A stretch of 64,000 nucleotides of DNA from a bacterium (lineage in GTDB: Bacteria; Patescibacteriota; UBA1384; VFKW01). The number at the start of each line of letters is the position of its first letter. Positions within the stretch are counted from its first letter, which is position 1. The notes under the pieces are model-generated. The model saw only the letters and a list, made by a program, of their open reading frames with translations, searched no databases and was not told the origin of the DNA. The stretch is from the NCBI GenBank assembly GCA_030647355.1, contig JAUSIS010000004.1, positions 4,066 to 68,065 of the forward strand, written 5' to 3'. The translations under genes and the position numbers were made by a program. Of this stretch, positions 2,588-27,791 are shown one piece after another.

Positions 2588-2867
2588 ACTCCTTGAGATT
2601 ATTCAAAACCGAAAAATAAAGAAAATGCCCGAGCCGAAGCACAGACATTTTCTTGAGTGCATTTTATCCACTCACCTTTTTATCGAAACGCCAGTATCTA
2701 ATTATAGATTGGGCTTATTCGAAAAAAGGTAAGGGACTTTACTTCGGTAGCCTGGCTGCCCAGCCCTTTTCAAAAAAGAGCTGGATCCATGGCTTTGCGT
2801 CCCCGTCTCACGGCGGGTTTGCCTTTTCGGTTTTGTAGAGAAATTATACCTTATTTGATTAAGTTTG

Positions 2868-3972: not shown

Positions 3973-4192
3973 TTATGCATACTTGTGTCTGATTTGTGTC
4001 TGATTTGTGCTCTATTCTGAAAATAGTTCGAACGTATTTCGGCCGTCAGGCGACCTGTCCCGAGCGACCTGTGGTGAGCGAAGTCGAACCAAGTCGAGGG
4101 AATAAAAACCCACCCACCTGAATTCTTGAACCTTAACAATTTCCAGTTTTTCTTTGGCGTTAATTACCAGGCCACCGCATCAGAAATTTATT

Positions 4193-22512: not shown

Positions 22513-22531
22513 GAGGTGCCAGGCGGGGATC
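22513..22531 (+). repeat. Degenerate copy B of the tRNA-Lys 3' end (inverted)
   Basis: GAGGTGCCAGGCGGGGATC. Confidence 0.45.
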
Positions 22532-22554: not shown

Positions 22555-23406
22555 TTAAGAGAGTTCGTCGGAAGGTCGGTAAGTACTCATGTAGAGTACG
22601 TATAGTATAGTACTTAAAAAGATTACTGAAATCTTTATTTCTTCTGTTTCATTATTGAGATCGTAATTATGGGGTAACATGGACCACCTGAGATTTGCCT
22701 CTTTAGTTAAAGACTCAAAAAAATTAATTATGCCTTGTTCGCTTTGATCTTCGCTAGCTTTCTGGAATATCTTTAAATCTAGTTTATTGATACTGTTTGC
22801 CCACTCAGACCTTGATGCAGACAGTTTGCATATTTCTCTTTTATCTACAGTATTTACGACCCACTGCCCACCTCCAAGTAAGTTGCCATCGATTGTAGCA
22901 ATAGCTTCTTTGGCTACGTTAAATACTTTTCTGTTTGGAATATCCAAAATAGCCATATGGTTATCATTTTTAAATAATTCAACTAACCCATTATTTATAT
23001 TTGCCTTAATGTTATTATTGGAACCATCATAGATAGAAAATACACCATTCAAAGATGATCCATGATTATCCATGTAGCTATAACTAAGAACCAAGTTGCC
23101 TAGTGCGGCTAAATTATTGTTTTGATAGTACCCGATTGTTCCTTTGATATCGACTTTTGTCAGTATGCGGTTCGCTTTTGTCAGCTGAGAAAATTCAATA
23201 TCTTGAGTTCCAGTCATCACATTGCCCTTTAATAAATTATTAGAATAAGCCATCATATTTTCTGTTCTACTAGTAATGTCTTCAGAAGTTTTACTTAAAG
23301 CTTTGCCAGTTTTATTTATCCAAATGAATCTCTTAATTATGAACACCATGACTACTAGCCAAACAATACCAAATGCAATCAAAAATAATATCTGTTCTAA
23401 ACTCAC
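22555..23406 (-). CDS. Hypothetical membrane-anchored protein (283 aa), Asn/Ser-rich
   Basis: N-terminal TM helix ILFLIAFGIVWLVVMVFII. No recognisable domain. Confidence 0.4.
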   Translation of the reverse strand: MSLEQILFLIAFGIVWLVVMVFIIKRFIWINKTGKALSKTSEDITSRTENMMAYSNNLLKGNVMTGTQDIEFSQLTKANRILTKVDIKGTIGYYQNNNLAALGNLVLSYSYMDNHGSSLNGVFSIYDGSNNNIKANINNGLVELFKNDNHMAILDIPNRKVFNVAKEAIATIDGNLLGGGQWVVNTVDKREICKLSASRSEWANSINKLDLKIFQKASEDQSEQGIINFFESLTKEANLRWSMLPHNYDLNNETEEIKISVIFLSTILYVLYMSTYRPSDELS

Positions 23407-23469
23407 TTTCTCCTCCGTTCATGAATAATTATAACATATAAGAACTTTTTCGGGTGCTTATATGTTATA

Positions 23470-23488
23470 GAGGGCCAGGCGGGGATCC
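23470..23488 (+). repeat. Copy C of the tRNA-Lys 3' end (inverted)
   Basis: GAGGGCCAGGCGGGGATCC. Confidence 0.5.
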
Positions 23489-23653
23489 TTCTCCCCCATC
23501 GTTTCACTCCTCCTCTGAAGCCTGGGACTTTTGCTGACGGCTCACAAAAACTGTTCGCCTATTCCTCCACTGGAGGCGCAAAAGTTCCCTTCGATCCCCT
23601 TATTTATTGGCTCAGATAAAATAACCCCATCTTGCGACAGGGTTATTTTATCT

Positions 23654-23677
23654 GAGGGCCAGGCGGGGATCGAACCC
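23654..23677 (+). repeat. Copy D of the tRNA-Lys 3' end (inverted), 24/24 identity, immediately preceded by a 15-bp-stem hairpin (23613-23654)
   Basis: GAGGGCCAGGCGGGGATCGAACCC equals the reverse complement of GGGTTCGATCCCCGCCTGGCCCTC (tRNA-Lys T-arm plus acceptor 3' strand). The adjacent hairpin is CAGATAAAATAACCC..GGGTTATTTTATCTG. Confidence 0.6.
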
Positions 23678-23795
23678 ATGATTTCAATGAATCGCATTGA
23701 TTTTTCGATCAGTTTACTCCATATTGAAGTGTTGACGGATATAGTGTTTTTTTGGTATAATAATTTAGAAATAAGGTTTATTTTATTTTTCTATT

Positions 23796-24121
23796 GGGCC
23801 AGTAGCTCAGTGGTAGAGCAGGGGCCTTTAATAATAAGAGCCTTTGCAGAGAAAAACAATCTGCAAAGTGGACGTCGCTATATGCTGGAAACCCCGTTGT
23901 TGCCGATGGTACTCGTTCGTAAGAGCAGTGAAAATCCATTCGGTGCGGACAATCAGCAGGAAACCCCGCCAAAGACGGGGGCTCCTCAGAGACTACACGC
24001 GATGCACCTGAAATGGTGAAGATATAGTCCAGACTACAATCCGCCAGCTGGCGGAGCTAGGGTAACTTAGTGTGGTAAGTTAAGCCTCGTGTCGCGGGTT
24101 CGATCCCCGCCTGGCCCTCCA
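23796..24121 (+). tRNA. tRNA-Lys (anticodon UUU) interrupted in the anticodon loop. Exon 1 is 23796-23828, exon 2 is 24080-24121 with encoded CCA
   Basis: Exon 1 is GGGCCAGTAGCTCAGTGGTAGAGCAGGGGCCTT. Exon 2 is TTAAGCCTCGTGTCGCGGGTTCGATCCCCGCCTGGCCCTCCA. Joined, they give a 7-bp acceptor stem (GGGCCAG/CTGGCCC), D-arm, anticodon stem GGGGC/GCCTC, loop CUUUUAA, T-arm GCGGG-TTCGATC-CCCGC. Confidence 0.75.
23829..24079 (+). ncRNA. Group I intron (IC3-like, tRNA-Leu(UAA)-intron family) inserted between anticodon-loop positions 34/35 of tRNA-Lys; no ORF
   Basis: Conserved R element CAGAGACTACACG (23987-99) and S element AAGATATAGTCC (24019-30) form P7. A P9-like hairpin CCGCCAGCTGGCGG is present. 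The 5' exon ends in U, the intron ends in G (24079), and the intron 5' end TAATAATAAGAGCCTT resembles cyanobacterial tRNA-Leu introns. Confidence 0.75.
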
Positions 24122-24273
24122 TATGAGGGGAAAGACACATCCAATAGAAATTAGAGAAAATGCCAAGACCTCAGATTTGAAGGTCATTCTTTGAATGAGA
24201 TAGCTAAGATAACGGGAGTTTTTATGGGTCCAAAAGAAGGGTAAGAGGTTGGGTCATATACGATCTAGGTCAT

Positions 24274-24795
24274 CTAATCATAACTTGAAGAAGTGCGGCG
24301 GATGCCGCCAGTTACGATTATCAATAATACTGGCGCAATTGTCCAGAATAAGCGGTAATCAATAATAAATCTGGCCATTTTGGAGGTTTCCTGGAGACCT
24401 TGACGCATTTCCGGTGGCATAAAGGTTGCAACTGCAGAGAGTAGTAGGACGGCATTAAAAAAACTGTAGGCAATGATTTCAATAGGAGAAAGTAGTCCGC
24501 GGGTACTCTTGCCGCCTAAACCGGATTTGCCAGCGACTAGGAAAGCTACTACAAGAAAAACGACTGCCTGGATGGTAAAAGGGGAAATATTAGCTTGAAT
24601 CCAGACTGAATTGGCAAAAGTTTTATTGCCAGTAAAAAAAAGCCGAATCGGTTCAACGACGACGGAAGATACAACTATACCGGTATAGATTGAGAGCAGG
24701 AAAGAAACAACGCGATCGCGTTGCATTATAAAACCGAATCCAACGGCTATGACCAGAAAGATGATAATGAAGACATCCCACGAGGGCACGCTCAT
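24274..24795 (-). CDS. Hypothetical polytopic membrane protein
   Basis: 173-aa hydrophobic ORF. Confidence 0.4.
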   Translation of the reverse strand: MSVPSWDVFIIIFLVIAVGFGFIMQRDRVVSFLLSIYTGIVVSSVVVEPIRLFFTGNKTFANSVWIQANISPFTIQAVVFLVVAFLVAGKSGLGGKSTRGLLSPIEIIAYSFFNAVLLLSAVATFMPPEMRQGLQETSKMARFIIDYRLFWTIAPVLLIIVTGGIRRTSSSYD

Positions 24796-25877: not shown

Positions 25878-27791
25878 TTAGCCAACCTGTTCGCCTTCAG
25901 TTTCTTCTTTTGGCTCATTTTTGGGCTCTTCTTTCGGCTCTTCGGGCGCTGATTGAGAACCGGGTTCTTGCGGAGGAGTTTCGTCTTTGGATTTTTCATA
26001 CATTGCCGAACCGACTTTTTGAATAGCTTCAGAGAGTTCTTCGGTGGCAGATTTGATTTCTTCTGACGATGAAGAGATATTGGAGACGCTTCGGGTTTTG
26101 GTTATTTTATCTTCAACTTCACGTTTTAATTCAGGATCAACCTTATCGCCAGCGTCTTTGAGAGTTTTTTCGGCTGAATAAATTAGATTATCGGCGATAT
26201 TTTTGGCTTCTATTGCTTCTTTCTTCTTTTGATCATCGGCGGCATGAGCTTCAGCTTCCTGACGCATTTTCTCAATTTCTTGCTCATTTAAACCACTTGA
26301 GGAAGTAATAGTAATTTTTTGCTCTTTGCCGGTGGCTTTATCCTTGGCTGTAACATGGAGGATGCCATTGGCATCAATATCGAAAGTTACTTCGACTTGA
26401 GGAATACCGCGCGGGGCGGGAGGTATGCCATCGAGAATGAAACGGCCGAGTGTGCGGTTGTCGGCGGCCATTGGACGCTCACCCTGGAGAACATGAATCT
26501 CTACAGTAGTCTGATTGTCGGCGGCAGTAGAGAAAATCTGGCTTTTGGAAGTCGGGATTGTGCTATTTCTTTCAATAAGCGGCGTCATAACTCCACCGAG
26601 GGTTTCGATTCCCAAAGTAAGTGGAGTCACATCGAGTAAGAGCAGTTCTTTGACTTCACCGCTTAGAACTCCGCCTTGAATGGCGGCGCCGAGGGCGACT
26701 ACTTCATCAGGGTTAACGCCTTTGGATGGTTCTTTACCGAATATCTTTTTTACAGTTTCTTGAATCAGCGGCATTCGGGTCATCCCTCCAACTAAAATTA
26801 CCTCATCAATTTTTTCCTTAGTGACTCCGGCATCTTTCAGAGCTTGCTCGGATATAGGGACTGTTTTGTTGATGAGTTCGCCAGTTAGCTGCTCCAGCTT
26901 TGAGCGAGTAAGTTTCATGACAAGGTGTTTTGGACCGGTTGCGTCGGCTGTGATAAACGGCAGATTAATTTCTGTTTCCTGGCTGGAGGAGAGCTCGATT
27001 TTGGCTTTTTCGGCTGCTTCTTTAATACGCTGGATGGCAGTTTTCTCGGTGCGCAGATCTAGACTTTCCTGTTTTTTGAATTCATCAATAATCCAGTCCA
27101 TCACTTTAATATCTAGATCGTCGCCGCCTAAATGGGTATCGCCGCCGGTGGACTTGACTTCGAAGACACCATCGCCGATTTCTAAGATAGTTATATCGAA
27201 TGTACCGCCGCCGAAATCATAGACGGCGATTTTACCTTCTTTTTTCTTATCAAGACCATAAGCTAGGGCAGAGGCGGTCGGTTCGTTGATAATCCTTTGG
27301 ACATTCAGACCGGCAATTTTACCGGCATCTTTGGTCGCTTGGCGTTGGGAATCGTTGAAGTAAGCCGGTACAGTAATTACGGCATCGGTGACTTTTTCAC
27401 TTAAAAATGCTTCGGCATCTGTCTTTAATTTCTGCAGAATGAAAGCGGAAACTTCTTGAGGAGAGTATGGTTTGCCTCCCATCTCAACTGCAACACCACC
27501 GTCTGATTTAACAATTTTATAAGGCATTAATTTAATATCTTTTTGGACTTCCGAATCTTCAAAGCGGCGACCAATCAGACGTTTTACAGAGTAAACGGTG
27601 TTTTCCGGGTTGGTAACCGATTGTCGTTTAGCAAGCTGACCGACAAGACGTTCATTGTTTTTCGCTACAGCAACAACGGACGGGACGATATTTGAGCCCT
27701 CGGCTGAAGGAATGATTTTTGGTTTTCCTCCTTCCATGACAGCCACGGCTGAATTAGTAGTTCCAAGATCTATTCCAATAATTTTTGCCAT
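25878..27791 (-). CDS. dnaK: Molecular chaperone DnaK (Hsp70)
   Basis: Start at [18 protein letters not shown] (27791). DLGGGTFD and other Hsp70 signatures are present. Confidence 0.95.

Follow-up and report, generated by a model that had tools for sequence, protein, structure and literature searches.

Our analysis concerns a split tRNA gene in a 64-kb stretch of bacterial DNA (positions 4,066 to 68,065, forward strand, of contig JAUSIS010000004.1, assembly GCA_030647355.1). We refer to the whole stretch as the window, and number positions from its first base. Our best explanation, to which we give a probability of about 0.88, is that positions 23796-24121 hold a chromosomal tRNA-Lys(UUU) gene of the Patescibacteria, or candidate phyla radiation (CPR). 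A 251-nt group I intron without an open reading frame (ORF) separates U34 from U35 of the gene, and would be spliced out by the route proposed below. Judging from the sequence and the predicted fold, the intron most likely self-splices after U34. Coordinates of the features are collected in Table 1.

Two exons reconstitute tRNA-Lys(UUU)

When the exons were joined, 23828 to 24080, ARAGORN called a 75-nt tRNA-Lys(ttt). With introns allowed, the call was tRNA-Lys(ttt) i(34,251). The minimum free energy (MFE) fold of the spliced sequence is a perfect cloverleaf (71% of the ensemble), with a 7-nt anticodon loop, U33 and the anticodon UUU. An initial annotation of this DNA had assembled a 75-nt tRNA with the loop CUUUUAA from the same two exons, and the ARAGORN call and cloverleaf bear this out. 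Beyond the anticodon arm, the 3' exon provides a 5-nt variable loop, the T arm, the acceptor strand, a discriminator U (24118) and an encoded CCA (24119-24121). Note that standard settings miss the gene. Default ARAGORN found five other tRNAs in the window, the split tRNA-Lys not among them, and an Rfam scan of the whole window, at the gathering score, listed neither tRNA nor intron at 23796-24121. The Rfam tRNA model gave only a partial match, 23796-23820, inside the 5' exon.

The spliced tRNA resembles those of related loci, which we number with the prefix L. Identity is 83-89% to the spliced tRNAs of L150, L151, L162, L170 and L210 (GC 0.34-0.43). For intronless CPR-type tRNA-Lys, it is 77% with the tRNA-Lys(UUU) of the syntenic locus L246, 72-78% with L247, L249 and L250, and 63% with L248. 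The discriminator U73 of the window is shared by the five split tRNAs and by L246. A predicted sigma-70-type promoter has its -10 box ending 35 nt ahead of the tRNA 5' end, and L210 and L246 have a TTGACG...TAAAAT promoter in the equivalent relative position. The number of matches in the promoter scan was not above that in shuffled controls.

Protein-coding calls also overlap the gene. A 162-aa ORF with a TTG start (23531-24019, plus strand) covers the 5' exon and part of the intron; it has no Pfam match and we took it to be spurious. In the public assembly, a spurious 113-aa gene is called over the intron on the opposite strand (L001:9773-10114, minus strand).

The insert has the fold of a group I intron

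When positions 23600-24300 (701 nt) were scanned with permissive Rfam settings, the full Intron_gpI model (RF00028, 1-253) matched with E 2.7e-11 and 48.7 bits, which is 1.3 bits under the Rfam gathering score of 50 bits. Hence, the intron was unlisted in the gathering scan of the whole window. According to the initial annotation, the lack of a significant Intron_gpI match would have told against an intron; the match is significant, although it falls narrowly under the cut-off. For tRNA introns, Williams (bioRxiv 2020) applied cut-offs of around 18-20 bits. Introns of rRNA genes that have the same core, described below, score 51-82 bits against Intron_gpI.

A structure from P1 to P9a was drawn by hand on the window sequence, guided by the Rfam alignment, and in the window all of its pairs are standard. 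The hand folding of P1-P9 recommended in the initial annotation thus yielded a complete group I fold, and the fold shows covariation in 47 homologues. The conserved core comprises the P3-P8 and P4-P6 domains, the P3/P7 pseudoknot and a bulged nucleotide in P7. P7, the guanosine-binding helix, consists of G23989-C24030 and of 23991-95 paired with 24025-29. The R and S elements therefore do form P7 together, as first described, with A23990 bulged. The P9 hairpin, the 5' exon ending in U and the intron ending in G, all proposed at the outset, are likewise present. At the 5' splice site, the wobble U23828.G23838 is flanked by U-A and C-G pairs. After the 3' closing helix comes AAG, ending in omega-G 24079, and the guide bases UAA (23835-23837) can pair with UUA of the 3' exon (24080-24082) as a potential P10.

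The precursor has a folding z of -4.07. Its unconstrained MFE structure recovers P2, P3, P4, P5/P5a, P6/P6a, P8, three helices of the 3' domain and the anticodon stem. The P5 extension is common to Lys introns of Actinomycetota, and missing in the five closest CPR-type relatives among the matches listed.

Covariation among homologues supports the fold

Homologues were collected by a core-pattern scan with one genome per species (at least 119 loci) and a scan of metagenomes, with a pattern that linked P7 to G/TTAA and the T loop (at least 120 loci; the slash marks the splice site). Note that the G/TTAA junction, being part of the latter pattern, is conserved there by construction. Exon mapping identified at least 99 loci, including the window, where the anticodon stem and CTT precede an intron that ends in G and is followed by TTAA; that is, tRNA-Lys(UUU) split at 34/35. 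The GC content of their contigs is 0.28-0.74 and the introns are 190-831 nt long.

We aligned 47 non-redundant short introns, with flanks (alignment A1). With the hand-drawn structure, 84.1% of cells are paired, compared with 36-45% after sliding the partners by 1-3 columns, although drawing the structure on the window sequence favours it over the slid controls. Both sides have changed in 49 of 68 pairs. The covariation score reaches 0.395, whereas slid partners give 0.131 at most, and none of 500 shuffles reached the observed values. Most of the signal comes from P2, P3, P4, P6, P8, the 3' closing helix and P9a; compensatory changes back P2, P3, P4, P6, P8 and P9. Similarly, differences between the window intron and relatives of about 70% identity are largely compensatory. 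The low pairing of P6a arises because MAFFT aligns this variable hairpin poorly.

The intron core, TATGCTGGAA ... CAGAGACTAYACG, is also found in group I introns of 23S and 16S rRNA genes from diverse bacteria (L022, L035, L082, L034, L059, L030, L058, L115, L083, L063, L027, L056, L040, L026, L092 and L111). Several of these rRNA genes carry two such introns. Matches to the core pattern included records labelled DPANN archaea. At L135, L138, L161, L164, L224, L237 and L238 (GC 0.42-0.49), the split tRNA-Lys(UUU) lies within a dense tRNA array that also holds tRNA-Lys(CUU), Asn(GUU), Arg(UCU) and others. These arrays may be phage or mobile-element tRNA clusters.

Covariation in P1 sets the splice-site register

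The Rfam alignment pairs G23838 with U23827, one base upstream of U23828. The alternative register, as in the tRNA-Leu(UAA) intron, pairs C32-U33-U34 with G23840-A23839-G23838. Neither CUU nor GAG varies among the 47 sequences of A1. The first intron base and the base 5' of GAG form C-G in 20 sequences, U-A in 15 and U.G in 10, with 2 other or unpaired. This covariation places the wobble pair at U34, so that the 5' splice site follows U23828, and insertion between positions 34 and 35, as given in the initial annotation, is confirmed. We also enumerated all combinations of splice junctions, and the output was mostly noise. Readings as Asn(GUU), a suppressor-like UUA or Leu(UAA) were rejected since they lack U-1/omega-G or a 7-nt loop or, for Leu, the long variable arm.

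The host is a patescibacterium

The window encodes DnaK (25878-27791, minus strand), whose best named matches are to Patescibacteria group bacterium and Berkelbacteria (72-78% identity). The CPR-type host suspected from the sequence is therefore correct. L210 is syntenic, with DnaK (72% identity), DnaJ, a 174-aa protein and then the split tRNA. In L246 the order is DnaJ, a 176-aa protein, a 174-aa membrane protein and then the intronless tRNA-Lys(UUU) with U73; here, the unit of tRNA and endonuclease is reversed in orientation relative to the 174-aa gene. Together, the synteny, 77% identity and U73 of the L246 tRNA indicate that the window gene corresponds to the ordinary chromosomal tRNA-Lys(UUU) of the lineage. 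Five loci with DnaK closer to that of the window than L210 or L246 (L121-L125, 78-85% identical) have no tRNA-Lys or intron at this place, while L121, L123 and L124 retain the neighbourhood of GrpE, DnaK, DnaJ and membrane protein. Hence, L121-L125 give no direct comparison of intron-plus and intron-minus states; L210 and L246 supplied one.

A decayed endonuclease gene follows the tRNA

Immediately downstream of the tRNA is the remnant of a free-standing LAGLIDADG/HTH endonuclease gene. The stretch after its frameshift begins CQDLRFEGHSLNEIAKITGV and soon reaches a stop, leaving a stub of about 40 codons with about 245 codons missing. Once corrected for the frameshift, the stub aligns with the N-terminus of the L150 ORF at 52% identity over 33 aa (E 2e-11). 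In L210, L151, L162 and L150, an intact LAGLIDADG_3 ORF of 282-300 aa lies on the same strand, 7-13 nt past the tRNA discriminator (Pfam E of 8e-10 and 2e-8 for intact ORFs). L170 has the intron and no LAGLIDADG ORF after the tRNA. A collaborative homing unit needs an intact neighbouring endonuclease, and the window has only the frameshifted stub. That the stub is frameshifted and truncated, while the intron helices and tRNA are intact, fits selection on splicing and not on mobility.

The LAGLIDADG family comprises 78 clusters in the protein database. All five distant members sampled (36-49% identity) lie directly 3' of an intronless tRNA-Lys(UUU), in L246-L250. The endonuclease lineage thus appears tied to the 3' flank of tRNA-Lys(UUU), whether the intron is present or not. 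In L246, L247 and L249 the endonuclease gene call runs into the tRNA. Searching the PDB by sequence with the LAGLIDADG ORF gave nothing but spurious matches to hemocyanin. A 283-aa ORF (22555-23406, minus strand), which adjoins one of the tRNA-fragment copies described below, was considered as a further decayed endonuclease and rejected; it has no Pfam or PHROG match and a hydrophobic N-terminus.

Proposed splicing pathway

We propose that a precursor would be transcribed from the sigma-70-type promoter of the gene, and that the intron would then fold into its P1-P9 core. The 5' exon's end, C32-U33-U34, would pair with the guide GAG, creating the U34.G23838 wobble in P1. Exogenous guanosine, bound in P7, would attack after U23828. 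G24079 would next take the same site, while UUA of the 3' exon pairs with guide UAA (P10), and the 5' exon would attack after G24079. This would free the intron and ligate the 75-nt tRNA. The expected ligated junction is ...GGGGCCUU/UUAAGCCUC..., and the anticodon loop, CUUUUAA, would read AAA and AAG. In relatives, introns would travel with the free-standing LAGLIDADG gene found right after the tRNA and decayed in the window. Since the window intron has no endonuclease of its own, and the neighbouring gene is a stub, we propose that it is now an immobile passenger. Splicing would have to persist for the tRNA to work.

Evidence against this interpretation and alternative explanations

Several observations weigh against the explanation that we favour. 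A73 is the usual discriminator, and an identity element, of bacterial tRNA-Lys, and the window tRNA has U73. Since U73 is also found in the five closest relatives among the matches listed, and in L246, we regard it as a trait of the lineage rather than a defect. The Intron_gpI score is under the gathering cut-off, and the drawn structure started with an advantage over its controls, as noted above. P7 is invariant, partly because both scans required its sequence, so its conservation is uninformative. With omega-G at 24079, the register preferred by Rfam (U33.G) would leave a 6-nt anticodon loop. In the functional register P1 is short, with 3 exon pairs, 1-2 intron pairs and an A.A mismatch. The closer DnaK relatives that lack a tRNA here indicate that the locus is not stably syntenic. 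Finally, our view of the genome is the 64-kb window, and this bears on the copy number of tRNA-Lys(UUU).

It is unlikely, in our view, that splicing is protein-assisted, with the adjacent LAGLIDADG protein of relatives acting as maturase, or a host factor helping, so that the intron is not truly self-splicing. LAGLIDADG maturases are known in fungal mitochondria, the P1 of the window is weak, and the LAGLIDADG ORF comes directly after the tRNA in L210, L151, L162 and L150. However, the intron and tRNA of the window are intact beside a frameshifted stub, and L170 has the intron without the ORF. In addition, the family follows intronless tRNA-Lys at each of the five sampled loci, which indicates that serving the intron is not why it is there. 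Other tRNA group I introns of Patescibacteria self-splice in vitro (Nakagawa et al., mSystems 2026, PMC13011429). We hold it less probable again that the gene is a relic, its intron having ceased to splice or its tRNA being unused, while another tRNA-Lys(UUU) elsewhere does the work. Only 64 kb of genome are in view, the neighbouring endonuclease gene has decayed, and the odd, incomplete copies of the tRNA 3' end show that the locus was rearranged. Against this, the P1-P9 helices, P7 with its bulged A, omega-G, U.G pair and perfect cloverleaf are all intact. Differences from relatives of about 70% identity are largely compensatory, a near-consensus promoter is kept, and an intronless tRNA-Lys(UUU) occupies the same position in L246.

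The product would be something other than tRNA-Lys if the splice sites were elsewhere: either U33/...A/GUUAA, giving tRNA-Asn(GUU), or the Rfam register with its 6-nt loop. ARAGORN reads Asn(gtt) at 50 related loci among the matches listed, and it also reads the Agromyces loci as Asn. The Rfam alignment has the U.G pair at U23827, and the same kind of two-way ambiguity in annotation is described by Nakagawa et al. (PMC13011429). Yet the Asn reading requires an intron ending in A, not G, and a molecule with a 6-nt loop is not a tRNA. Covariation in P1 sets the register at U34, and the shifted register is unable to pair in L151. In the arrays of L135, L138 and L164, a genuine tRNA-Asn(GUU), starting UC... 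and with G73, stands beside the split Lys gene. Published homologues are 90-100% identical to intronless tRNA-Lys (PMC13011429), and L246 has the intronless Lys(UUU) counterpart. We consider a product other than tRNA-Lys very improbable, and tRNA-Lys(UUU) split at 34/35 by a self-splicing intron remains our preferred explanation.

Other features of the region

Upstream of the gene, the minus strand carries three partial copies of the tRNA 3' end, decaying with distance. Copy 1 is followed by a strong 17-bp hairpin (23611-23656) and, with the true 3' end (24096-24119), makes a perfect 24-nt inverted repeat around the promoter and tRNA body. The copies were rejected as tRNA genes, with no Rfam tRNA match at E up to 10, and a weak RsaE-like match was dismissed (24 bits against a cut-off of 79). 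No inverted copies were found in 98 other Lys-intron loci or in L246-L250, so, among the loci searched, this feature is peculiar to the window. Possible origins are old integration/att scars, an inversion, or repair scars. Elsewhere, the window holds a c-di-GMP-I-GGC riboswitch aptamer (2742-2832, minus strand; 67.4 bits against a gathering score of 59).

Table 1. Positions of the split tRNA gene, its intron and associated features (window coordinates unless a locus is named)
Feature	Position	Strand	Details
Predicted sigma-70-type promoter	23732..23761	+	TTGACG, 18-nt spacer, TG-TATAAT; 11/12 consensus positions, extended TG
5' exon	23796..23828	+	reads GGGCCAGTAGCTCAGTGGTAGAGCAGGGGCCTT; acceptor strand, D arm, anticodon-stem strand GGGGC, then C32 U33 U34
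Insert, ORF-less group I intron	23829..24079	+	251 nt; first base U23829, last base omega-G 24079
P1 and internal guide	23826..23840	+	C23826-G23840, U23827-A23839, U23828.G23838 wobble at 5' splice site, U23829-A23837
P2 hairpin	23843..23867	+	8 bp, loop GAAAAACAA; 5/6 core pairs changed on both sides; in MFE
P3 5' strand	23873..23878	+	pairs with 23999-24004; 6/6 pairs double-changed; 87.7% of cells paired
P4	23883-88 with 23953-58	+	84% paired
P5	23894-97 with 23945-48	+	66% paired
P5 extension (P5a)	23903-09 with 23936-43, plus distal hairpin	+	96% paired in sequences having it
P6	23959-60 with 23984-85	+	93.6% paired
P6a	23964-68 with 23976-80	+	only 55% paired
R element	23987-23999	+	CAGAGACTACACG; P7 5' strand G23989, bulged A23990, 23991-95; then J7/3
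P3 3' strand	23999-24004	+	overlaps end of R element
P8 hairpin	24005..24018	+	4 bp, loop UGAAAU; 99.5% of cells paired; 3/4 pairs double-changed
S element	24019..24030	+	AAGATATAGTCC; J8/7 AAGAUA, then P7 3' strand 24025-24030
3' closing helix	24033-38 with 24071-76	+	84% paired; encloses P9 and P9a
P9	24040-45 with 24050-55	+	recovered by MFE
P9a	24057-61 with 24066-70	+	GUAA tetraloop; 95% paired; 5/5 double changes
3' exon	24080..24121	+	begins TTAAGCCTC, ends CTGGCCC-T-CCA; U35 U36 A37 A38, anticodon-stem strand GCCUC
Decayed free-standing LAGLIDADG/HTH endonuclease gene	24123..24244	+	ATG 24123, MRGKTHPIEIREN, 1-nt frameshift, CQDLRFEGHSLNEIAKITGVFMGPKEG, stop
Copy 1 of tRNA 3' end	23654-23677	-	24/24 nt identical to tRNA 3' end
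Copy 2 of tRNA 3' end	23466-23487	-	22 nt, 21/22 (one mismatch)
Copy 3 of tRNA 3' end	22514-22531	-	14 nt exact
Intact endonuclease ORFs	L210:4422-5270; L151:1878-2780	-	LAGLIDADG_3
Intronless tRNA-Lys	L246:1987-2059, L247:1654-1727, L248:1897-1969, L249:1958-2032, L250:1928-2000		
PD-(D/E)XK, HNH or DUF559-like ORF after split tRNA	L148, L240, L154, L157, L182, L197, L233, L120, L140, L190, L211, L212, L220, L244		
Long introns with ORF	L128, L130, L131, L135, L155, L161, L165, L173, L179, L191, L192, L208, L215, L221, L223, L226, L243		

Discussion

The intron belongs to a known class. The initial annotation took a group I intron in tRNA-Lys of a CPR-type genome to be, as far as known, an undescribed combination. 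For group I introns in tRNA-Lys as such this does not hold: we mapped at least 99 such loci, and Table S5 of Nakagawa et al., a survey of 4,934 complete genomes, has Lys(TTT) 34/35 introns in four Actinomycetota genomes (GCF_009930795.1, GCF_022919715.1, GCF_015277895.1 and GCF_021582875.1), two labelled IB2 (247 and 255 nt) and two IC3 (218-219 nt; PMC13011429). Williams (bioRxiv 2020) had raised the known combinations of tRNA and group I intron from four to 21. In 95 complete Patescibacteria genomes of the Nakagawa et al. survey, Asn, Asp, Met, Phe, Tyr and Thr introns are reported; the portions of the survey available to us give no Lys intron for these genomes and none assigned to subgroup IC (PMC13011429). 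To that extent, Patescibacteria are absent from the survey as host of a Lys intron.

The IB2 and IC3 labels are those of Nakagawa et al., and we compared the window intron with labelled introns by identity and core sequence. Its identity to the IB2-labelled Lys introns is 71-73%; with Arg(UCU) 34/35 introns the figure is 67-69%, and with a Leu(UAA) IC3 intron about 59%. The likeness to tRNA-Leu(UAA) introns drawn in the initial annotation is therefore partly right. The insertion site at 34/35, the 5' exon CUU paired to a GAG guide, the lack of an ORF and the 3' domain (closing helix, two hairpins and terminal GUGGUAxG) are shared. However, the nearest introns are those of Actinomycetota Lys (about 70-73%) and Arg(UCU), and the closest published Lys introns are labelled IB2, not IC3 (PMC13011429). 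The 3' exon is UUAA in the window and AAAA in Leu, with P10 guide bases changed to match, and the P3-P7 core reads UAUGCUGGAA...CUCAGAGACUACACG in the window but AAAUUCGGGG...GUAGAGACUAGACGG in IC3-labelled Leu and Lys introns.

The Actinomycetota introns share with the window the same tRNA, the 34/35 site, CUU/...G/UUAA junctions, the lack of an ORF and a length of 218-255 nt. Those of GCF_009930795.1 and GCF_022919715.1 also share the P3-P8 core and P5 extension. Our scans recovered Lys-intron loci of Agromyces, Arthrobacter and Microbacterium. There are differences: the window host has a GC content of about 0.38, against about 0.7; U73 replaces A73; P1/P2 of the window is closer to CPR-type relatives; and downstream is a LAGLIDADG remnant, where some Actinomycetota-type loci have an HNH ORF. 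Introns in tRNA-Arg(UCU), listed for Bacillota and Bacteroidota in Table S5 of Nakagawa et al., have the site after CUU, P1-P2 GGAGCCUUUAUA...AAGUGGA and J8/7-P7 GGUGAAGAUAUAGUCCAGAC in common with the window; their host tRNA (3' exon CUAA) and P4-P6 sequence differ. The tRNA-Asn/Asp introns of Patescibacteria are likewise anticodon-loop introns, ORF-less or HNH-bearing, that standard annotation tools miss or mis-assign, in the same phylum as the window. Conversely, they are at 35/36, in other host tRNAs, and of subgroup IA.

Nucleases at other tRNA-Lys(UUU) loci place the endonuclease remnant in context. The counts here cover such loci only, among the matches listed. Of 74 ORF-less introns whose 3' flank was long enough, 17 have a nuclease ORF within 150 nt downstream; LAGLIDADG, PD-(D/E)XK, two HNH groups and a weak DUF559-like group are represented. 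A further 18 loci have long introns, with an internal ORF in 17. Free-standing PD-(D/E)XK and HNH-A ORFs cluster by blastp with intron-encoded ones, and none of the loci has both an internal and a free-standing ORF. In collaborative (trans) homing, an ORF-less intron is paired with a neighbouring free-standing endonuclease, as for cyanophage psbA/F-CphI and phage Aeh1 nrdA/mobE (Hausner et al. 2014, PMC3984707). By analogy, the arrangement of Lys introns and endonucleases matches this phage route to mobile introns, and homologous endonucleases do occur beside or inside Lys introns in other lineages. Here, though, the gene is for a cellular bacterial tRNA, rather than a phage protein. The LAGLIDADG family is found after intronless tRNA-Lys as well, and so may be linked to the tRNA and not the intron.

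We tentatively suggest, at somewhat less than even odds, that tRNA-Lys(UUU) is a recurrent landing site for ORF-less introns and several unrelated endonuclease families (LAGLIDADG, PD-(D/E)XK and two HNH groups). The intron would shield the gene from the adjacent endonuclease, and collaborative homing would spread the pair among cellular bacteria, Patescibacteria included. The loci would then show every stage on the way to a mobile intron: the endonuclease beside an intronless tRNA (L246-L250), beside a split tRNA (L210, L151 and 15 more), a homologous endonuclease within the intron (17 loci), and the endonuclease decayed with the intron kept (the window). The inverted tRNA fragments could be scars of intron or endonuclease events.

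The gene adds a Lys, non-IA case to the intron-rich picture of Patescibacteria given by Nakagawa et al. 2026. In a standard annotation the genome would appear to lack tRNA-Lys(UUU), since default ARAGORN and Rfam miss the gene and gene callers predict spurious ORFs across the intron. Should no other tRNA of the genome read AAA, translation in a reduced genome depends on RNA-catalysed splicing. The part most worth following is the association of tRNA-Lys(UUU), intron and neighbouring endonuclease. Nakagawa et al. sought endonuclease genes inside introns only, and concluded that mobility of tRNA introns is limited (PMC13011429). Neighbouring free-standing endonucleases could alter that conclusion, and may offer a natural series for the assembly of a mobile intron.

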